64,000 nt of DNA from Ostreococcus lucimarinus (GCA_000092065.1 CP000581.1); one strand, 5' to 3'; shown: positions 4,493 through 39,715, counted from the stretch's first letter. Notes: generated from the letters alone by a model not told the origin. Numbers and translations are program-made.

Positions 4493-6736
4493 ATGCGTCG
4501 CGCGTCCTCCGCCGTCGCCGTCGGGCGCGCGGGCGATCTCGCGTCGTTCGACATCCGCCTCGACGCGTCGGCGGCGCTCGAGACGCGCCATCGCGAGCTC
4601 AGCGGCGTCGGGACGTCGTCGTCGCGGCGATTTCGTCGCGACGGGGACATCGCGCGCGTCGACGCGCGCGCGCGCGACGAGGCGGACGACGGCGACGGGC
4701 ACCGCGCGCACGCGCTCGCGGTCGTCGCCGACGCGTCGGCGCGCGAAGGCGGTCGGGCTGGGACGTGGATGATGGCGGGCGGACGCGGGACGGCGACGGC
4801 GACGCGGGACGCGCCGCGGCCGGGACCGCCGCGACGAGGCGTCGGTTCGACGCTGCGCGCGACGGCGGAGGTGGAGCTCGGAGGGGTGTGCTTGGAGGTG
4901 GACGTGCGAGAGGGCTCGCGGGGGCAGGGACGGGAGCGCACGGCGGATGTGGCGGAGGCGTGCGCGCGGTGGCGGGACGGCGCGGCGCTGTGGCGGTTCG
5001 AGTCGAACGTCGTCGAGAGAGCGGAGACGAAGGCGAAGGCCAAGGCCAAGGCCAAGGCGGGGCGTGATAGGTTTGAGGTAGCTTTAGATGTGATTGAGAT
5101 CGCGCGTGTGGACGAGGGCGCGGGATACGGGGAATTGGCGGCGATTCGGATCCATCCGACGATGGTGGGCGAATGTGCGTTTGTGTCCACGCACGGAGAA
5201 GTCGCGACGATGACGGCAGATGGCGTAAAGCGCGTGCCGTGGCGACCGTTGGGGAGCGAGATGACTGCGGTTGGCGATTGGTACGGGCTCGGTTACGGGG
5301 CGCATCCGCGCACGTTGTTACACGGAAGTCACGTCGGAAGCACCGGGATATCGAGCGTGCACGAGGTGGATTTACGAAGTCGTCGGGGCGAGACGCGGCG
5401 CGCGCACGAAGCCGATCGCGGTGAGACGCTTTGCGCGATATCTACCGCGTTTGAGCACTATTACGCCGTCGCAACGCGTGGGTCGACGTCAGAATCATCG
5501 AACGTTGAGCTGCGCGACGTCAGACGCGCGAACGATCCCGTGCTTCGCTGGGACCATCAAGGACTTGTTCCGCCGACGACGTTGCGAATCGTCGACGTTG
5601 CGCAATGGTGTTCTAAATGTCGCTCGATCGTAATTCAAGCGTTTACGCCAGGCACCAGGGAAGTTTACCTGTACGAGTGCGAGCGTTTCGTGGGCGAGCG
5701 GCGAGGACATTCGGGCGAGCAAGTACGCGCGGTGACGTTCGGCTCCACCATTCCTCTGCCTTCATCGAGCGGTGTACACGGCTTTGCGATGACAAAACTC
5801 GGCGTAGATCGTGGAGGAATGTTTTGGCGCGACGAAGACGGCGTTTGGTGTCAGAATTACGCCATACATGGCGACGTCAACGCGATGCGCTTTCAGCCGC
5901 CGCAATTTAGCGAAGAAGACGCGGCCAGACGCGCGGGGGAGGCGGCAGACTTTTTGTCGCGAAACCCAGTTCCTCTATCACGTTGGCAGCAGAAGCGCGC
6001 GCCTGATGATGCGTTCATAGATCTACCTCATCTGCACGAGTTCATCGCCAACGGCGTCGTACCGGTATCCGATTTCCCTGTCGACGATTCGCTCGAGAGG
6101 GATCGGGATGGCGAACGCGAAACTGTTGCGAGGTTGCACGCCGCGTTTACCGACGGTTGGTGCATGAATGCGAGCGAACTTTTGGAGTGCGCGGAGTATC
6201 TACAAGGCGCATCCAGAGCGTCGGCGTCCATGCGCATCGATGAATGGCGCAATCGTTTCCGTACCCGTTCCGAACCTGCGCCGAACTATGCCGAATTCAT
6301 CGACATCGCTCTGTCCAAACCACTCACGACTGCAACGCCGTTGGACGACGAGCGGACGCGCGAGATTATCGAGCGAGACTTACCGAAGTGGAAGAAGATT
6401 TTCGCCGAAAACTCACTGCCGCAGCCTCTTGAGATGGCTCTCCGGGACTATCGACTCGCGAGGTATCGCGATGCCGACGAGATTCAGCACACGAAGTTTG
6501 CTCGGCGGCTCTTTCACGCGTCTCGGTGCTTGAACGAGACGCAAGACGAGGATTTCGACGGTGCGAGCGCCTCGACAGCGAAGAACGCATCGCAGGCCTC
6601 GACGACTCTCTCGCAAATCGGTGACGACGCGCCGTTTGCTGATAGATTACTGTCGCAATGGACCGACGACGCCGGGGGATCGCATCGCATGCAGTCGCCG
6701 TCGCGATTCATCGTTAGCAACACTCAGGAAATATAA
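4493..6736 (+). CDS. Hypothetical protein (747 aa). The N-terminal third is low-complexity and includes a KAKAKAKA run; the C-terminal two thirds is an unrecognised globular region.
   Basis: ATG at 4493, 72 bp from the divergent FSH1 start. Long ORF with coding-like codon usage. No family recognised by eye. Confidence 0.4.
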   Translation: MRRASSAVAVGRAGDLASFDIRLDASAALETRHRELSGVGTSSSRRFRRDGDIARVDARARDEADDGDGHRAHALAVVADASAREGGRAGTWMMAGGRGTATATRDAPRPGPPRRGVGSTLRATAEVELGGVCLEVDVREGSRGQGRERTADVAEACARWRDGAALWRFESNVVERAETKAKAKAKAKAGRDRFEVALDVIEIARVDEGAGYGELAAIRIHPTMVGECAFVSTHGEVATMTADGVKRVPWRPLGSEMTAVGDWYGLGYGAHPRTLLHGSHVGSTGISSVHEVDLRSRRGETRRAHEADRGETLCAISTAFEHYYAVATRGSTSESSNVELRDVRRANDPVLRWDHQGLVPPTTLRIVDVAQWCSKCRSIVIQAFTPGTREVYLYECERFVGERRGHSGEQVRAVTFGSTIPLPSSSGVHGFAMTKLGVDRGGMFWRDEDGVWCQNYAIHGDVNAMRFQPPQFSEEDAARRAGEAADFLSRNPVPLSRWQQKRAPDDAFIDLPHLHEFIANGVVPVSDFPVDDSLERDRDGERETVARLHAAFTDGWCMNASELLECAEYLQGASRASASMRIDEWRNRFRTRSEPAPNYAEFIDIALSKPLTTATPLDDERTREIIERDLPKWKKIFAENSLPQPLEMALRDYRLARYRDADEIQHTKFARRLFHASRCLNETQDEDFDGASASTAKNASQASTTLSQIGDDAPFADRLLSQWTDDAGGSHRMQSPSRFIVSNTQEI
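5036..5061. repeat. (AAGGCC)n hexamer microsatellite encoding a KAKAKAKA run inside the 4493..6736 ORF
   Basis: aaggcgaaggccaaggccaaggccaaggcgg seen directly. Confidence 0.7.
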
Positions 6737-31073: not shown

Positions 31074-32471
31074 TTAGTCGAAGCGATCGAACTCATCTAA
31101 CGCTTCTCCAGCCTTGACGAAGGAAAACGCATCGCGATCGAGCGTCTTCTTCGGCGACGGTGGAATCGCAACTTCCTCGCCATCGATCGAGGTGCAGAAT
31201 TCGGGGAGAGTTTTTGCGACTAAAGCCGAACGTCGCGCGTGCTTTTTCGCAAAATTCGTAGCGTAAGCCCCCGCCTCGGACGCTAAAAACTCGGGCGTTC
31301 CTCGACAGTCGTGCTCGGCGAATTCCGGAAACGGCGCGGCTTCGGGTAGGACACCGTTTTCGATAATCATCGACTTGATCCACGATTTCTTCGCCTTGGC
31401 CACGGACCACATCTTGCGATTCATGCTCATCTCCGTCACGAGCCACTTCGTGGTCTCTTCGCTAAAAAACTCCCGAAACGTCGCCTCGCAGTTCGCCCCC
31501 CCCCCTTTGCCGTGCGGCCCCTTGACGAATCGAAGCTTCTGCACCGTCACCGGATCCACGAACGCGCGCAACATGGTGTAAAGCCCGTTAAATATCTTCG
31601 GCGCCTCGACGAAAATCATCATCTCCAATCGTTCCGGGTACGATCTCGCGAACAACGACATGCACTTCGTCGCCACGCTCGGCGCCATGTTCCCCGCGCC
31701 GAAGCGATGAAAGTCGCACACCCACACGTATTGATCGTACGGATACGCCGGCAAGAACGACTCCAACAGTTCCAACACCTGCACGCAGTGTTCCACGTTG
31801 CTCGCCGCCTTATGATCCATCGCGAGTCCGATGTCCGAGTACACGATCGCCCGTCCGCACGCGTCGAACCCGATCTGCTGCATGTAGTGGCTCCGAAAGT
31901 CTCCCTCGAAGCATCGCTCGCATCGCACGTCTCCCGGCCGCGCCGCGGCTCGCCACGCGATCGTCTTTCGCAGCCGTTTTGTCGCCTTCGCGACGTCTCC
32001 CTTATCCGCCCTCAGGAACCGCTCGCACGTCTCGCGCGTGCACCACGCGTCGACGTCGTCGTCGCGCGCCGCCGCGAGCGCATCCGCGACGCGTCGTCGC
32101 ACGGCGTCGACCGCCTCGGGCGCGATCGCGGTTCGCATGCGCGCCGTGATGGACACCTTATCGCGAAGCGCGACGTCGCGACTCGTCGTCGACGTCGACG
32201 CGTCTTCCGCCCGCCGCGTCGCGCGCGCGCCGTTCGCCATCGCGCGCCGCGCTCCGACGCGCGCGACGCCGAGCGCGACGACGCCGGCGCGATCGCGACG
32301 CGTTTCAGTGCGTTTCAGTGAGACGTCATTTATACACCCGGTCGCAACGCACATAGCGATATCGCGCGTGGTGTACGTACATGCGTACATGCGCGCGCGT
32401 CGCACGCCCCGCACGCGCGCGTCGAACGTGGGGCAGCGCGGCGTCGCGGACGTCACAAATACGCACCCCAT
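31074..32471 (-). CDS. SEC14/CRAL-TRIO lipid-binding domain protein
   Basis: CRAL-TRIO N-terminal helix region (WCTRETCERFLRADKGDVAKATKRLRKTIAWR), then the lipid-binding core (YVWVCDFHRFGAGNM...MIFVEAPKIFN). The ORF starts at ATG 32471. An alternative start at 32240 is possible. Confidence 0.65.
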   Translation of the reverse strand: MGCVFVTSATPRCPTFDARVRGVRRARMYACTYTTRDIAMCVATGCINDVSLKRTETRRDRAGVVALGVARVGARRAMANGARATRRAEDASTSTTSRDVALRDKVSITARMRTAIAPEAVDAVRRRVADALAAARDDDVDAWCTRETCERFLRADKGDVAKATKRLRKTIAWRAAARPGDVRCERCFEGDFRSHYMQQIGFDACGRAIVYSDIGLAMDHKAASNVEHCVQVLELLESFLPAYPYDQYVWVCDFHRFGAGNMAPSVATKCMSLFARSYPERLEMMIFVEAPKIFNGLYTMLRAFVDPVTVQKLRFVKGPHGKGGGANCEATFREFFSEETTKWLVTEMSMNRKMWSVAKAKKSWIKSMIIENGVLPEAAPFPEFAEHDCRGTPEFLASEAGAYATNFAKKHARRSALVAKTLPEFCTSIDGEEVAIPPSPKKTLDRDAFSFVKAGEALDEFDRFD

Positions 32472-32912
32472 GTCCGCCGCCGTTAAGGTGCGCGATCGAC
32501 GCGCGAGACGACGCGATCGGACGACGACGGCGCGATCGCGACGTCGCGACGTCGCGACGCGCGGTCGCGACGTCGGCGACGGCGCGATGACGGACGCGGG
32601 ACGAGCGATCGCGGATAATCATCTCATCGACGCCATCGGCGACGACGATCGGGGACCGCGGGCGTCGAGCGCGGACGCGCGCGCGCGCGAGGACGCGAGG
32701 GACTGACGGAAAGAATTTTGTGCGTCGCGATCGCAGACCGTCGAACTCACCGCCCGCACCGCGCTCGCGGGTAACTTCCGCAAGGCGACCGCGCCGCGCG
32801 CGGCCGCGAAGGTGCGTGACCGCGCGGAACTCGGCGCGCGCGCGACGCGCGAGCGCGCGCGACGTCGACGGGGGTGCGCGGAGACTGACGAATGGGGTGT
32901 TTGCGCGTCTAG

Positions 32913-32976
32913 GCCAACGTGAACGTGGTGACCGAGGCGAAGGTTAAGGTTGCCATCAACGGTTTCGGCCGCATCG
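32913..32976 (+). CDS. gapB: GAPDH internal 5' exon (ANVNVVTEAKVKVAINGFGRIG)
   Basis: Encodes the NAD(P)-binding GxGxxG start of GAPDH. Preceded by the acceptor tctag| and followed by the donor G|GTGCGTG at 32977. A further upstream exon probably ends near 32811 (…ALAGNFRKATAPRAAAK|GTGCGTG); its ATG exon was not located. Confidence 0.6.
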
Positions 32977-33290
32977 GTGCGTGCGATCGCGGATAAGGGT
33001 CGCGATGCGATTGTCGCGATGTCGATGCGTTTCGCGCGTCGTGTGCGCGGTGTTCGCGCGATGTGAGGCGAACGAGGGCGCGCGGTGATTGGGAGAATAT
33101 GCGCGCAGCGCTCGTGCGTCGAGGGAGGGCGCGCGCGAGGCGCGCGAGGCGCGCGAGGGTGCGATCGACGCCGGGGTGCGCGCACGTGGCACCCTGGGGA
33201 TTTTTATGACTTTTAGCTCGCGCGCGTGGGCACGACTCGAACGACGCGACTGACGATGAAATGAACGCTTGTGGGCGATTTAAAACACAG
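32977..33290 (+). other. Spliceosomal intron (314 bp, GTGCGTG...ACAG) splitting GFGRIG|RNF in GAPDH, phase 1
   Basis: The GAPDH N-terminal motif is interrupted exactly at a GT. Homology resumes after aaaacacag| at 33291. Confidence 0.7.
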
Positions 33291-34354
33291 GCCGCAACTT
33301 CGTGCGATGCTGGAAGAGCCGTGGCCCGGACTGCCCGCTCCAAGTCGTGTGCGTGAACCAATCCGGCGGCGCCAAGCCGGCGGCGCACTTGCTCAAGTAC
33401 GACTCCATCTTGGGTACGTTCAAGTCTGACGTCAAGGTTGTCGACGACGCCACGATCTCCGTCGATGGTGACATCATCAAGGTTGTGTCCGATCGCGACC
33501 CGCTCAACTTGCCGTGGAAGGAAATGGGCATCGACATCGTCATCGAAGGTACGGGCGTCTTCCTCGACGGCCCGGGCGCGGGCAAGCACATCCAAGCCGG
33601 CGCCAAGAAGGTTGTTATCACCGCCCCGGCCAAGGGCTCCGACATCCCGACCTACGTCGTCGGTGTGAACGCCGACCAATACGACAACTCTGCCAACATT
33701 GTCTCCAACGCGTCGTGCACCACCAACTGCTTGGCGCCGTTCGCCAAGGTGATCGACGACAAGTTCGGCATCGTCAAGGGTACGATGACCACCACGCACT
33801 CTTACACTGGTGATCAACGCATCTTGGATGCGTCCCACCGTGACTTGCGCCGTGCTCGTGCCGCCGCCTTGAACATCGTGCCGACCTCCACCGGTGCCGC
33901 CAAGGCTGTTGCGCTCGTCTTGCCGCAACTCAAGGGTAAGCTCAACGGTATCGCGCTTCGCGTGCCGACGCCGAACGTGTCCGTCGTCGACCTCGTCGTC
34001 AACGTTGAGAAGAAGGGCGTCACCGCTGAAGAAGTCAACGCCGCGTTCAAGGAAGCGCAAGATGGCCCGATGAAGGGTGTTCTTGCGATCACCGATGTCC
34101 CGCTCGTGTCTGTCGATTTCCGGTGCACCGACGTGTCCACCACCATTGACGCGGCTCTCACCATGGTGATGGGCGATGACATGGTCAAGGTTGTCGCGTG
34201 GTATGACAACGAATGGGGTTACACCCAACGCGTCGTCGACCTCTCCCTCATCGTCGCCAACGGCCTCATCAACGAAGGTGTTGCCTCCGCCGACCCGATG
34301 GACCAACTCTGCGCGGATGATCCCTCGGCGGACGAATGCAAGGTGTTCGATTAA
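33291..34354 (+). CDS. gapB: Glyceraldehyde-3-phosphate dehydrogenase, plastid GapB-type (main exon) with a CP12-like C-terminal extension
   Basis: Canonical GAPDH blocks: [10 protein letters not shown] (catalytic Cys), [10 protein letters not shown] and WYDNEWGY. Then a roughly 30-aa tail ending [20 protein letters not shown], with the two Cys of the GapB/CP12 redox tail. The track ORF begins on GTG at 33302. Confidence 0.85.
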
Positions 34355-34692
34355 ACCATTTTTTCGATCAACTTCATCGAGCGATGTTGGCGAGTGGACG
34401 AGGCGTGAGACGTAATTATTACGTCGTTGCGCCCTTGATTTCTCGCGCGATTTACCAGCGTATTAACACACACTTCTGTAATCAGAATCTAGAGACAGAT
34501 TTGAAAGAACCGCGTTCGCCTCGACGTAATTTTTCCGTCTCGACTCGAAAGCGCTGTACTTAACGTGGCGTCCTGCAAAGTTGCATTACAAATATATTGA
34601 ATCAATGACCTGTCGTCGATGAAAGAATATCACGAAATGAAGACGAGCGCGCGTCTCGATTGTCGTGTGCGCGTGCGAGAGGATGGGGATGG

Positions 34693-35715: not shown

Positions 35716-35956
35716 CCGCCGCGCGCGCGACGCCGCGACGCCGCGACGCCGCGGTCCGACCGTCCGACCGTCCGACCGTCCGGTCGCGCGGTCGCGCGGT
35801 CGCTCGGTCGCGCGTCGTCGACGCGTCGCCGTGTCGCGCGCGCGCGCCGACGTGCTGACGCGACGCTGACGCGGACGCGCCGCGGGCGATCCGCACGCGG
35901 GTCTCATCACATGGGCCCGAACGCGCGTTAAACGCGGGGAAATCTTCGTAAAGGAG

Positions 35957-37716
35957 TGCGGGTGACATAACAAGTTGGAGTGATCAAAGCATCGTCTAGT
36001 CCAAAGCGAGCACGGTGATATCCGAGCAATCGCGGCCGTCATCCGCGAGGACGCACTCGAATCGAGCCAACATCGTCTTCATTTTACTCCTCGTGATGCT
36101 CGCGGGCGTGAGTTTCTTGAGTCTTTCCTGGTCGCCGAGACTCGCCCCGCGTTCTTCTTTCATCTTCTCCCAGTCCTCGGCGGAACGAATTCCAACACAC
36201 AACTCTTCGGAGTTATACTTCGCGAGGCATTCTAAACGAGCTTCAATCATTATCATACCAGGCGACTTGCCTAAGCCACAGTCGCAGTGCAGCGTCGTCC
36301 AGGATCGCATGTGACGCAAGACTTCTGGGCTCCCGAAATCCCAAGTCTCGCCCGGGAGCTTGTTGACATCGGCACACCCTGAACCGTAGTCATCGTATGA
36401 CAGTGCGAACGCATGCGCTTCGCCTTTCATACTGAGTTCGTTGATGGCCTGCGCTACACGTTCTTGTTCCATCGGGTGAGGACCGTAATTCAAAGCGAGC
36501 CGCTGGATTTTCAGCGTCGTCGGCGACGCGCGCCAGAAGACTTGGCCCGAGTTGAAATTCCAAGCGTCTTGATGGTGTTGTTTAGCGTTCTCATTCTTTT
36601 GCATATATGGGTAGCGTCCACGGTACAGCGCGTTATATCCGATCCAGTCTTGTTGATAAAACACATTTGTGCGCGGATGTTCGCGGACTAAACGCCCCAA
36701 GTCTGGGACTTTAAAAAGGAGAACATCCGTGTCGAAGATGAAAAAGTCCACATTCGCGGCGAGCAATCCGAGAGTGACTTTTTGTTTGAACCAAGTCAGC
36801 TGTTTGTATTTGAGGTCGTCGGCGTGCCCGCCCGAGTGCACCAAGCCGTCGAACGCGTGCCCGTCGGCGTATTGCAAGCAGTGAAACAGCTTCTCGCTTT
36901 CGCACTTCCTCGTCGCGTCGGCGTCCAGCGTGATCAAAATGTACCGCTCAATGAAGCACGTTTGATTCACAACGCGCTGCGTCGATAATTTGGCGGTCTC
37001 ATAGTTTTCCGAATCCGCGATGGAGACAAAGAGCGTGTTCGCCGGCGCGCACGACGACGGCGTCTTCGCGCGCTGCTGCGCAAACGGGTGCAACTGTTTA
37101 TACCACGAGCAATCCCTCGGCGTGATCTTGTGTTCGGTCTCGTGTGCCCTGTCATCGTCTCCGTTCATCGCGTTCGGGTAGTCGCTCGTCATCGCCGGCA
37201 GGCACGACAAGTTGCCGCCGACGCGCTCGAAGTCGTAAAAGTCGCCGCCGAGCGTGGCGGCGTCCCCTTCCAAATCCATCGCGTCCGCCTTCGCCGAGCG
37301 CGCGCGCGCGCCGAGCGGTTGGACGGACGCATCGCGCGCGGAGTTGACGCTCGAGACGATCGCCGCCCCGACGAGGAGCGCGCACGCCGAGCCGACCGCG
37401 AGCGTCGTCTTCAGGCTCAGGCTCGAGCGTCGACTTTGGTGTTGCGCGCGATCCGTCGCGGTCAACGACGCCGGCGCGTCGACCAAGGGCGCGGACTCCT
37501 CGAGCGAGCCCGACATGGTGATCTCTTGGATATCCTTGGATCTCTTGACTTAGAGTCGACGGACGAGCGAGCGATGTGCCGAACTGTGCCGCTCGCTCGC
37601 GGAGGGTGTTCAGACGGAGTGCTCGTCGAAGCGGTTCGCGAAGCAAACAGCCGCGTCGGCGGAAACGAACGAGCGAAGTCACCGCTCAGCTCGAGACACG
37701 CCTGGATCTGACGATA
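35957..37716. repeat. Tandem segmental duplication, copy 1 (about 1760 bp). Contains glycosyltransferase gene copy 1 plus about 40 bp of 3' flank and about 200 bp of 5' flank.
   Basis: About 99% identical to 37822..39581 (period 1865 bp). The copies are separated by a unique spacer of about 105 bp (37717..37821). Confidence 0.9.
35996..37516 (-). CDS. Type-II membrane glycosyltransferase, copy 1 (N-terminal signal anchor plus a lumenal nucleotide-diphospho-sugar-transferase-like domain with a DxD motif)
   Basis: 506-aa ORF from ATG. Single TM near the N-terminus (LAVGSACALLVGAAIVSSV). DxD in FIFDTDVLLF and Cys-rich C-terminus. The family (GT77-like, Nucleotid_trans) is inferred by eye only. 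Confidence 0.6.
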   Translation of the reverse strand: MSGSLEESAPLVDAPASLTATDRAQHQSRRSSLSLKTTLAVGSACALLVGAAIVSSVNSARDASVQPLGARARSAKADAMDLEGDAATLGGDFYDFERVGGNLSCLPAMTSDYPNAMNGDDDRAHETEHKITPRDCSWYKQLHPFAQQRAKTPSSCAPANTLFVSIADSENYETAKLSTQRVVNQTCFIERYILITLDADATRKCESEKLFHCLQYADGHAFDGLVHSGGHADDLKYKQLTWFKQKVTLGLLAANVDFFIFDTDVLLFKVPDLGRLVREHPRTNVFYQQDWIGYNALYRGRYPYMQKNENAKQHHQDAWNFNSGQVFWRASPTTLKIQRLALNYGPHPMEQERVAQAINELSMKGEAHAFALSYDDYGSGCADVNKLPGETWDFGSPEVLRHMRSWTTLHCDCGLGKSPGMIMIEARLECLAKYNSEELCVGIRSAEDWEKMKEERGASLGDQERLKKLTPASITRSKMKTMLARFECVLADDGRDCSDITVLALD

Positions 37717-37821
37717 TTAAACATGGACACAGGCTTAGCCGAGGCGAGAGGCGTAGCTCGAGCGTCTAGACCTCGGCGACGATCGCTTTCGCCACCGCCG
37801 CGCTCGGAGGCGCTTTCCCGG

Positions 37822-39581
37822 TGCGGGTGACATAACAAGTTGGAGTGATCAAATCATCGTCTAGTCCAAAGCGAGCACGGTGATATCCGAGCAATCGCGG
37901 CCGTCATCCGCGAGGACGCACTCGAATCGAGCTAACATCGTCTTCATTTTACTCCTCGTGATGCTTGCAGGCGTGAGTTTCTTGAGTCTTTCCTGGTCGC
38001 CGAGACTCGCCCCGCGTTCTTCTTTCATCTTCTCCCAGTCCTCGGCGGAACGAATTCCAACACACAACTCTTCGGAGTTATACTTCGCGAGGCATTCTAA
38101 ACGAGCTTCAATCATTATCATACCAGGCGACTTGCCTAAGCCACAGTCGCAGTGCAGCGTCGTCCAGGATCGCATGTGACGCAAGACTTCTGGGCTCCCG
38201 AAATCCCAAGTCTCGCCCGGGAGCTTGTTGACATCGGCACACCCTGAACCGTAGTCATCGTATGACAGTGCGAACGCATGCGCTTCGCCTTTCATACTGA
38301 GTTCGTTGATGGCCTGCGCTACACGTTCTTGTTCCATCGGGTGAGGACCGTAATTCAAAGCGAGCCGCTGGATTTTCAGCGTCGTCGGCGACGCGCGCCA
38401 GAAGACTTGGCCCGAGTTGAAATTCCAAGCGTCTTGATGGTGTTGTTTAGCGTACTCATTCTTTTGCATATATGGGTAGCGTCCACGGTACAGCGCGTTA
38501 TATCCCACCTGGCCTTGTTGATAAAACACATTTGTGTGCGGATGTTTGCGGAGTAAAAGCCCCAAGTCTGGGACTTTAAAAAGGAGAACATCCGTGTCGA
38601 AGATGAAAAAGTCCACATTCGCGGCGAGCAAACCGAGAGTGACTTTTTGTTTGAACCAAGTCAGCTGTTTGTATTTGAGGTCGTCGGCGTGCCCGCCCGA
38701 GTGCACCAAGCCGTCGAACGCGTGCCCGTCGGCGTATTGCAAGCAGTGAAACAGCTTCTCGCTTTCGCACTTCCTCGTCGCGTCGGCGTCCAGCGTGATC
38801 AAAATGTACCGCTCAATGAAGCACTTTTGATTCACAACGCGCTGCGTCGATAATTTGGCGATGTCATAGTTTTCCGAATCCGCGATGGAGACAAAGAGCG
38901 TGTTCGCCGGCGCGCACGACGACGGCGTCTTCGCGCGCTGCTGCGCAAACGGGTGCAACTGTTTATACCACGAGCAATCCCTCGGCGTGATCTTGTGTTC
39001 GGTCTCGTGTGCCCTGTCATCGTCTCCGTTCATCGCGTTCGGGTAGTCGCTCGTCATCGCCGGCAGGCACGACAAGTTGCCGCCGACGCGCTCGAAGTCG
39101 TAAAAGTCGCCGCCGAGCGTGGCGGCGTCCCCTTCCAAATCCATCGCGTCCGCCTTCGCCGAGCGCGCGCGCGCGCCGAGCGGTTGGACGGACGCATCGC
39201 GCGCGGAGTTGACGCTCGAGACGATCGCCGCCCCGACGAGGAGCGCGCACGCCGAGCCGACCGCGAGCGTCGTCTTCAGGCTCAGGCTCGAGCGTCGACT
39301 TTGGTGTTGCGCGCGATCCGTCGCGGTCAACGACGCCGGCGCGTCGACCAAGGGCGCGGACTCCTCGAGCGAGCCTGACATGGTGATCTCTTGGATATCC
39401 TTGGATCTCTTGACTTAGGGTCGACGGACGAGCGAGCGATGTGCCGAACTGTGCCGCTCGCTCGCGGAGGGTGTTCAGACGGAGTGCTCGTCGAAGCGGT
39501 TCGCGAAGCAAACAGCTGCGTCGGCGGAAACGAACGAGCGAAGTCACCGCTCAGCTCGAGACACGCCTGGATCTGACGATA
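37822..39581. repeat. Tandem segmental duplication, copy 2
   Basis: See copy 1. Same flanks (gtgcgggtgacataacaagttggagtgatcaaa... at the 3' side; ...cgcctggatctgacgatat at the 5' side). Confidence 0.9.
37861..39381 (-). CDS. Type-II membrane glycosyltransferase, copy 2 (paralogue of 35996..37516)
   Basis: 506 aa. Differs from copy 1 at roughly 11 residues concentrated in three patches (ENYETAKL/ENYDIAKL and QTC/QKC; GRLVREHPRT...QQDWIGYN/GLLLRKHPHT...QQGQVGYN; ENAKQ/EYAKQ), plus a few synonymous changes near the 3' end. Confidence 0.6.
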   Translation of the reverse strand: MSGSLEESAPLVDAPASLTATDRAQHQSRRSSLSLKTTLAVGSACALLVGAAIVSSVNSARDASVQPLGARARSAKADAMDLEGDAATLGGDFYDFERVGGNLSCLPAMTSDYPNAMNGDDDRAHETEHKITPRDCSWYKQLHPFAQQRAKTPSSCAPANTLFVSIADSENYDIAKLSTQRVVNQKCFIERYILITLDADATRKCESEKLFHCLQYADGHAFDGLVHSGGHADDLKYKQLTWFKQKVTLGLLAANVDFFIFDTDVLLFKVPDLGLLLRKHPHTNVFYQQGQVGYNALYRGRYPYMQKNEYAKQHHQDAWNFNSGQVFWRASPTTLKIQRLALNYGPHPMEQERVAQAINELSMKGEAHAFALSYDDYGSGCADVNKLPGETWDFGSPEVLRHMRSWTTLHCDCGLGKSPGMIMIEARLECLAKYNSEELCVGIRSAEDWEKMKEERGASLGDQERLKKLTPASITRSKMKTMLARFECVLADDGRDCSDITVLALD

Positions 39582-39715
39582 TACGCAACGCTATCGCGCG
39601 ATCGCCCGCCCGGCTCGACCCGTCGTCGCGCGGCGCCAACGTGTGCGGCGGCGATGAAACCACGCGCGAGCGCGGCGCGCGCGCGAGAGCGGCGCGCGCG
39701 GCGCGCGCGCGGGCG

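Follow-up and report, generated by a model that had tools for sequence, protein, structure and literature searches.

A GapB-type chloroplast GAPDH gene with a two-cysteine tail in Ostreococcus lucimarinus, and its relation to GapA in Mamiellales

Chloroplast NADP(H)-dependent GAPDH of spinach contains a B subunit, GapB, whose C-terminal extension (CTE) carries two cysteines. According to PMC3838966, a Cys349–Cys358 disulfide gives this tail a hairpin shape close to the coenzyme site, and the oxidised tail lowers NADPH activity and allows A8B8 assembly, effects that thioredoxin f reverses. Robbens et al. 2007 (J Mol Evol 64:601) are credited with finding that Ostreococcus tauri and Ostreococcus lucimarinus have GapB but no CP12. 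Mann et al. 2026 reported GAPB in many non-core chlorophytes and Prasinodermophyta and placed the GapA/GapB duplication before the Chlorophyta–Streptophyta split, and the published maximum-likelihood tree contains a supported GAPB clade that includes Ostreococcus (PMC13491260). Here, we describe the GapB-type gene on the plus strand of a 64,000-nt stretch of O. lucimarinus DNA (GCA_000092065.1 CP000581.1; hereafter the window), at positions 32470–34354.

We conclude with high confidence that this gene is nuclear GapB, encoding the B subunit of chloroplast NADP(H)-dependent GAPDH in Ostreococcus (Mamiellales), and that it was inherited vertically. Splicing yields a 1221-nt coding sequence (CDS) for a plastid protein of 406 aa, a complete phosphorylating GAPDH whose C-terminal tail carries two cysteines in the form CxxxPxxxxC. 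A first-pass annotation of the window had considered the gene relevant to the date of the GapA/GapB duplication; the relevance stands and the novelty was overstated, an Ostreococcus GapB with a CP12-like tail having been known since 2006–2007 and revisited in 2026. Petersen et al. 2006 reportedly discussed the timing of the duplication. The practical gain is a complete, transcript-verified gene model with an 18-nt first coding exon, together with a warning for GapA/GapB phylogeny: in Mamiellales, only codons ~288–376 and the tail are informative for paralogy.

Identity and gene model

First, database searches place the protein with GapB. The 406-aa protein matches Pfam Gp_dh_N (104 bits, E = 5e-30) and Gp_dh_C (224 bits, E = 8e-67), values at which a chance match is no concern. 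Its nearest named relative in the protein search is 'chloroplast glyceraldehyde-3-phosphate dehydrogenase subunit B [Ostreococcus tauri]' (P0013), at 94% identity, and streptophyte GapB proteins are about 74–76% identical. The top solved structures in the structure-database search are spinach GapB (7q54_Q, E = 4.9e-190; 2pkq_O, E = 4.6e-188), with the best natural GapA chain, 7q54_R, ranking below them (E = 1.9e-174); the spinach GapB alignment reaches the final residue of both proteins, tail included, and GapA chains end at residue 376.

Second, the functional and diagnostic residues are those of GapB. The alignment with spinach GapB shows the same SNASCTTNC (Cys149), TTHSY (His176), SDRDP (Arg77) and DASHRD (with Ser188) segments and the same S-loop arginines; Arg77 and Ser188, which bind the NADPH 2′-phosphate, are both present. 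All of the GapB markers of Petersen 2006, as listed in PMC13491260 (103G, 104P, 247N, 252G and 253T), occur here, as G103/P104, N247 and the G252/T253 insertion, and the GapA counterpart of the last region reads VVQVSKKT-FAEEVN, without the insertion. The Q-to-N change and the one-residue insertion are found in every examined streptophyte or prasinophyte sequence bearing a CTE, except for mosaic Micromonas forms, and in none of the examined GapA sequences; the insertion is missing in all four cyanobacterial sequences, one of which has N at position 247. G103/P104 occur in Mamiellales GapA too and are therefore not diagnostic within Mamiellales. The match to O. tauri subunit B, the ranking of spinach GapB above GapA, the marker residues and the tail all agree with the first-pass call of GapB.

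The mosaic forms are four CTE-bearing proteins of Micromonas type (P0059, P0065, P0067 and P0069) with a GapB-like tail. They are GapA-like over residues ~284–350 (QTEKK-CT, Q247, no G252/T253) and GapB-like only afterwards; as they keep the tail without the Q-to-N change or the insertion, the marker residues are not needed to keep it.

At position 32 (Geobacillus numbering), chloroplast GAPDH and Gap2 are described as having a conserved Asp (Asp32, PMC3728087); this protein has Gln there (VNQSGG, codon 75, window 33356–33358). QS stands at this position in 104 of the 199 motif-matching sequences, including Mamiellales GapA and GapB types and a few other prasinophyte GapB; among the Mamiellales GapA and GapB seen, most have it. 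Gln32 is a lineage peculiarity and gives no ground to exclude the protein from the plastid NADP(H)-GAPDHs.

Third, transcripts fix the exon structure, as follows (window positions, strand, feature; UTR, untranslated region; ORF, open reading frame):

32449–32469, +, 5′ UTR, minimum extent; contig L001 covers it from 32468, and P0002, a transcript-derived ORF, reads MGTNTHP before the ATG, matching acaaatacgcacccc
32470–32487, +, coding part of exon 1, start of the transit peptide, MSAAVK (6 codons, 18 nt, ATG TCC GCC GCC GTT AAG); L001 bases 1–20 are window 32468–32487
32488–32736, +, intron 1, 249 nt, phase 0, GTGCGC...CTGAC...CAG (gene model and L001)
32737–32811, +, exon 2, transit peptide, TVELTARTALAGNFRKATAPRAAAK (gene model and L001)
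32812–32912, +, intron 2, 101 nt, phase 0, inside the transit peptide (gene model and L001)
32913–32976, +, exon 3, end of the transit peptide and mature N terminus, ANVNVVTEAKVKVAINGFGRI-G (first base) (gene model and L001)
32977–33290, +, intron 3, 314 nt, phase 1, GTGCGT...ACACAG (gene model and L001)
33291–34354, +, coding part of exon 4, residues 53–406 and TAA (ORF, gene model, Pfam, L001 and spinach alignment)
33995–34261, +, paralog-specific (GapB-diagnostic) catalytic part, codons ~288–376, with N290 (=N247) and the KKG-VT one-residue insertion
34262–34351, +, CTE, residues 377–406, with Cys393 at 34310–34312, Cys402 at 34337–34339 and Asp406 as last residue
34355–34498, +, 3′ UTR, minimum extent; the L001 alignment runs to 34498

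L001, a 1368-nt intronless environmental transcript contig (JGI sample 3300026420) that encodes P0003, aligns to the window in four blocks (32468–32487, 32735–32812, 32911–32977 and 33290–34498) that meet exactly at the proposed junctions. P0001 and P0003 (406 aa, from ~1.36-kb JGI contigs) cover 100% of the 406-aa model with one substitution each. L001 and P0001–P0012 show the gene to be transcribed and spliced; its frame is intact from the ATG through the 3′ UTR, and the tail, whose loss from the mature transcript would have spoken against GapB, is present in spliced L001.

The first-pass annotation had placed a 314-nt intron inside the GxGxxG motif and a 101-nt intron in the transit peptide, and both lengths are exact, with L001 junctions in agreement. 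Its view that introns are confined to the extreme 5′ end also holds, all of them lying within the first 160 coding nt; their number is three, however, the 249-nt intron 1 having been missed. The gene start that it gave, 32700, falls inside this intron, and the upstream ATG exon that had not been found by eye is the MSAAVK exon at 32470–32487, supported by L001. All three introns start with GTGCG and have a CTGAC branch-like motif 5′ of the AG. Intron 3 splits the last Gly codon of GxGxxG (G|GC, GFGRIG|RNF), and beyond it the coding part of exon 4 runs uninterrupted for 1064 nt to the stop (mechanical ORF 33302–34354, +), taking in most of the NAD(P)-binding domain, the catalytic domain and the tail. 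The ~40-residue presequence before KVKVAING, rich in Ala, Arg and Thr, is the predicted transit peptide. Intron 1 also holds a 29-nt unit repeated ~2.1 times at 32525–32598 (CGACGGCGCGATCGCGACGTC...); GC-rich low-complexity sequence of this kind is typical of introns and intergenic DNA in the window.

The C-terminal tail and its likely redox role

The two-cysteine extension reported by the first-pass annotation is present as an acidic tail of 30 residues, with two cysteines nine positions apart at 393 and 402 in the motif C393-ADD-P-SADE-C402, followed by KVFD and the stop, which fits CxxxPxxxxC. It aligns to the spinach CTE over its full length, with the same spacing, four residues after the second cysteine and an acidic last residue in both; 11 of the last 25 residues, including both cysteines and the proline, are identical as counted on the alignment. 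The same tail is encoded by dozens of environmental transcripts and contigs and is kept across three genera.

The further claim that the tail is CP12-like holds in so far as its match covers the final 22 positions of the Pfam CP12 model (PF02672, hidden Markov model positions 49–70 of 70), which include the GAPDH-binding Cys pair, but its score lies below the family threshold. The tail alone reaches 17.3 bits (E = 0.0086) and the whole 406-aa protein 12.5 bits, against a gathering score of 22.7; the tails of Riccia, Chlorokybus, Nephroselmis and another prasinophyte GapB pass at 33–38 bits. We therefore take the tail to be a diverged member of the same family as these GapB tails. No AWD core was found: the tail lacks both the AWD_VEEL core and the N-terminal Cys pair of CP12, so that it cannot bridge PRK, and its likeness is confined to the C-terminal third of CP12, which is what a GapB tail should show. 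The 64,000-nt window yielded no CP12-like ORF. Because Mamiellophyceae are reported to lack CP12 (PMC13491260), the tail is probably their sole built-in GAPDH redox switch; the Ostreococcus lineage differs in this from the spinach A2B2/A8B8 system, which has a CP12 partner.

By analogy with spinach, Cys393 and Cys402 (equivalent to spinach Cys349 and Cys358) would form a disulfide in the dark. The oxidised hairpin would dock near the coenzyme site and draw Arg77 off the NADPH 2′-phosphate, a displacement that would depress NADPH-dependent activity and favour higher oligomers. Reduced thioredoxin f would reverse this in the light by opening the disulfide and reactivating the enzyme. As every sequence element needed is present, a spinach-type redox switch is the most likely function of the Ostreococcus tail. 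The two GapB proteins (spinach structures PDB 2PKQ and 7Q54–7Q57) are alike in catalytic and NADPH-discriminating residues, markers, CxxxPxxxxC motif and acidic C terminus, and probably share the same auto-inhibitory mechanism; the Ostreococcus protein differs in a linker two residues shorter, in Gln for Asp32 and in a transit peptide of ~40 rather than ~80 residues.

GapA and GapB sequence similarity in Mamiellales

The likeness of GapB to GapA in Mamiellales changes abruptly along the gene. CTE-less (GapA-type) Mamiellales proteins are 90–93% identical to the window GapB and have the transit peptide and translated 5′ UTR in common with it; within one MMETSP culture transcriptome, GapB (P0032) and GapA (P0058) are 100% identical to residue ~283 and 65–80% identical beyond. 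At the nucleotide level, GapA contigs L006 and L007 and GapB contigs L008 and L010, which come from the same Ostreococcus lineage, are 98.4–98.7% identical over codons 54–288, with synonymous third positions 97–100% identical up to codon 233, and only 75.5–77% identical over codons 289–376. The corresponding values for GapB orthologs (window versus L008, L010 and O. tauri) are 89.8–92.6% and 85–90.5%; the lineage of GapB contigs L008–L011, at 92.6%, is distinct from that of the window. Beyond codon ~288, the GapA contigs L006, L007 and L015 are 72–77% identical to GapB. Mamiellales GapA (these contigs and P0036 of O. mediterraneus) is thus near-identical to GapB from the transit peptide to codon ~288 and has the same intron positions, Gln32 and G103/P104, whereas past that point it has Q247, no insertion and no tail, and its 3′ neighbour is an SQD1-like epimerase. 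An alignment of L006 with GapB locus L010 extends for 2.1 kb at 93%, upstream region and all introns included; window introns 1 and 3 gave no alignment to L010.

Neighbour-joining (NJ) trees divide at the same place. For residues 41–283, all Mamiellales GapA and GapB fall into one clade (99.5% bootstrap) in which A and B pair by lineage, at 96–100% for three lineages and 71% for Bathycoccus. For residues 284–376, A is separated from B, and the window gene groups with GapB, but with strict GapB monophyly in only 18% of bootstraps. Clustering with GapA, which the first-pass annotation had regarded as telling against GapB, is therefore seen for the N-terminal two-thirds, a pattern we ascribe to concerted evolution, but not for the C-terminal part and tail, which are GapB. 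Since only codons ~288–376 and the tail carry paralog signal in Mamiellales, whole-domain phylogeny would be misleading there.

Tentatively, we propose that recurrent gene conversion has kept the ancient GapA and GapB paralogs of Mamiellales near-identical over a tract that begins 5′ of the ATG, takes in the transit peptide and all three introns and ends at about codon 288, with selection preserving only the last ~90 catalytic residues and the tail as paralog-specific; we hold this to be somewhat less likely than not. The proposal draws on metagenomic contigs and transcriptomes rather than on the window, and in such assemblies a shared repeat invites chimeras. At five synonymous sites within codons 54–288, both GapA contigs differ from the four GapB contigs compared over the exon, and at nine upstream or intron sites they differ from the two compared in that region. 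These GapA-specific sites count against pure chimerism of the GapA contigs, an explanation that we disfavour, and no Mamiellales GapA with a divergent N-terminal part turned up in any protein search made. When the 107 C-terminal residues specific to GapA were used as the query, most matches were short fragments, and none was a named GapA from Ostreococcus or Micromonas. The mosaic Micromonas proteins suggest variable ends of conversion tracts. Alternative 3′ exons of a single gene, considered as a reason for the identical 5′ parts, were rejected: in the window, exon 4 runs unbroken into the tail, and in L006, L007 and L015 it runs unbroken to a stop of GapA type. L015 was likewise rejected as the GapA of the window's own lineage, since it belongs to a third lineage and is 92.3% identical to the window at the nucleotide level. 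The 'merc' metatranscriptome unigenes P0017, P0025 and P0031, which join an Ostreococcus 5′ part to a GapA 3′ part of QVEKKTF type, were not relied on as a second GapA type: the C-terminal part of P0017 groups with non-Mamiellales GapA P0129 (82% bootstrap), and all three may be cross-species chimeric assemblies instead of a third paralog.

Two further observations concern the GapA locus. GapA lies tail-to-tail with an SQD1-like NAD-epimerase gene in Ostreococcus (L007 and L015) and Micromonas (L012). The latter, a 53.5-kb Micromonas-like contig, joins GapB-type upstream genes (prefoldin and CRAL_TRIO) to a GapA 3′ end beside SQD1, which points either to a chimera assembled across the shared repeat or to a real duplication of the upstream region.

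If conversion has occurred, GapA and GapB subunits would share promoter and targeting sequences, the G103/P104 'GapB markers' would lose their meaning in Mamiellales, and in some Micromonas GapB even N247/G252/T253 would have been overwritten. For Mamiellales, GapA/GapB trees built on the whole length would be confounded, among them those from which the duplication was dated. If confirmed in finished genomes, conversion would be a clean case of partial conversion between two subunits of one heteromeric enzyme, and it might explain why chlorophyte GAPA does not form one clade in the published tree. GapA/GapB conversion in Mamiellales goes unmentioned in the searchable literature; Robbens 2007 and Petersen 2006 lie outside that scope and may describe it. 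The conversion hypothesis is the only part of this analysis that merits further work.

Some of these results weigh against reading the window gene simply as a spinach-like GapB. Its N-terminal two-thirds groups with Mamiellales GapA, and strict GapB monophyly was recovered in only 18% of bootstraps (NJ, 93 paralog-specific columns, codons 284–376). The tail by itself falls under the CP12 gathering score (17.3 versus 22.7 bits), and its linker is two residues shorter than that of spinach. With Gln in place of Asp32, coenzyme behaviour and NADH use may differ from those of spinach; thioredoxin control, A2B2/A8B8 assembly and inhibitory docking would all carry over from spinach by analogy.

Part of this evidence could instead be taken to mean that a Mamiellales GapA copy gained a CP12-derived tail independently and came to mimic streptophyte GapB, a convergent fusion that we regard as very unlikely. 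The 243 N-terminal mature residues do group with Mamiellales GapA and not with other GapB (the 99.5% clade of A and B), but gene conversion explains this signal better, within-lineage paralogs being 98–99% and between-lineage orthologs 90–93% identical at the nucleotide level. The poor CP12 score of the tail and the weak support for strict GapB monophyly on the C-terminal part fit a fusion as well; against them stand the GapB-specific Q-to-N change and insertion beyond codon ~288, and a tail that matches streptophyte CTEs end to end. A de novo origin was also rejected by Mann 2026 (PMC13491260) and, as cited there, by Robbens 2007.

Vertical inheritance and surroundings of the gene

GapB is flanked by two minus-strand genes:

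31074–32471, −, divergent upstream neighbour, CRAL_TRIO/Sec14-like, mechanical 465-aa ORF; in the same place in O. tauri, Bathycoccus, L010 and L012
34693–36042, −, convergent downstream neighbour, KH-domain protein, mechanical 449-aa ORF; a KH gene is in the same place in O. tauri, Bathycoccus and Micromonas L013

The order OTCase–prefoldin–CRAL_TRIO(−)–GapB(+)–KH(−) is common to O. tauri (L002) and Bathycoccus (L003); Ostreococcus contig L010 has the upstream part of this order, and Micromonas L013 has KH downstream of GapB. The GC content of the CDS is 0.615, compared with 0.604 for the whole window. Because gene order is conserved, the introns carry one set of GTGCG/CTGAC signals and GC is host-like, we conclude that the gene was inherited vertically and is not a recent transfer.

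The O. tauri gene is the ortholog of the window gene, with 94% amino-acid identity, the same neighbours, all three introns at the same positions and the tail motif; it belongs to a different Ostreococcus lineage, with about 90% nucleotide identity in the CDS. It also has a micro-exon that matches window exon 1 (MSAAVQ, ATGTCCGCCGCCGTTCAG|gtgcgc, L002 3766–3783), 235 nt upstream of the deposited start. The deposited model (P0013) lacks MSAAVQ and begins MQTVEL..., with an ATG formed from the last bases of intron 1 (aatATGCAG|ACC, L002 4001–4006), and is probably missing exon 1.

The GxGxxG intron occurs in O. tauri, in other Ostreococcus GapB and GapA contigs and in Micromonas, where L012 shows both of its splice sites and L013 an equivalently placed, matching 3′ splice site. 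Bathycoccus GapB has both transit-peptide introns and no GxGxxG intron. The GxGxxG intron is therefore common to Mamiellales, with a precise loss in Bathycoccus. Introns that survive in intron-poor genomes usually lie towards the 5′ end. Cucurbita and Riccia GapB, in contrast to the three all-5′ introns of Ostreococcus, have 7–8 spread introns, none of them in GxGxxG and none at a mature-region position common with Ostreococcus. Homology of the transit-peptide introns with streptophyte GapB introns is undecidable, as transit peptides do not align reliably.

These data bear on the horizontal transfer of a streptophyte GapB into Ostreococcus, which Robbens 2007 proposed according to Mann 2026 (PMC13491260) and which we consider slightly less probable still than convergent fusion. 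It drew on GapB having been known for years only from streptophytes and Ostreococcus, but many prasinophytes outside Mamiellales also have CTE-bearing sequences. Synteny at the locus extends across Ostreococcus, Bathycoccus and Micromonas, the intron signals and GC are host-typical, and none of the 7–8 mature-region intron positions of streptophyte GapB is held in common; Mann 2026 also argues against transfer (PMC13491260). An artefact, whether a tail that is untranslated read-through, a pseudogene or an assembly error, has a negligible probability, as no point in its favour was found and it is refuted by the spliced, in-frame transcript L001, from ATG through 3′ UTR, and by the recurrence of the tail in environmental sequences and three genera. 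Vertically inherited GapB thus remains our reading of the locus.

The GapB 3′ end is locally duplicated in Bathycoccus prasinos (GCA_964199445.1, L003 4777–5463). One copy of QRVVDLTLIVAKALVTGVENFSD ends at 4851 and is followed at 4853–4903 by a stretch 70% identical to the CTE; a second, intact copy with CTE lies ~480 nt downstream, and the deposited 446-aa model reads through both.

In the window, the minus-strand CRAL_TRIO ORF extends to 32471, over the GapB ATG, and the start of this gene is probably an internal Met near 32240. The two genes are divergent, with about 230 nt between their likely start codons (32240–32470).

Elsewhere, window 35956–37717 is duplicated in tandem at 37821–39582, with a period of 1865 nt and 98.8% identity over 1762 nt. 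On the minus strand, the duplication holds two near-identical ORFs of 506 aa (35996–37516 and 37861–39381) that include a DTD-containing segment; in O. tauri (L002), an R3H gene occupies the equivalent interval instead.

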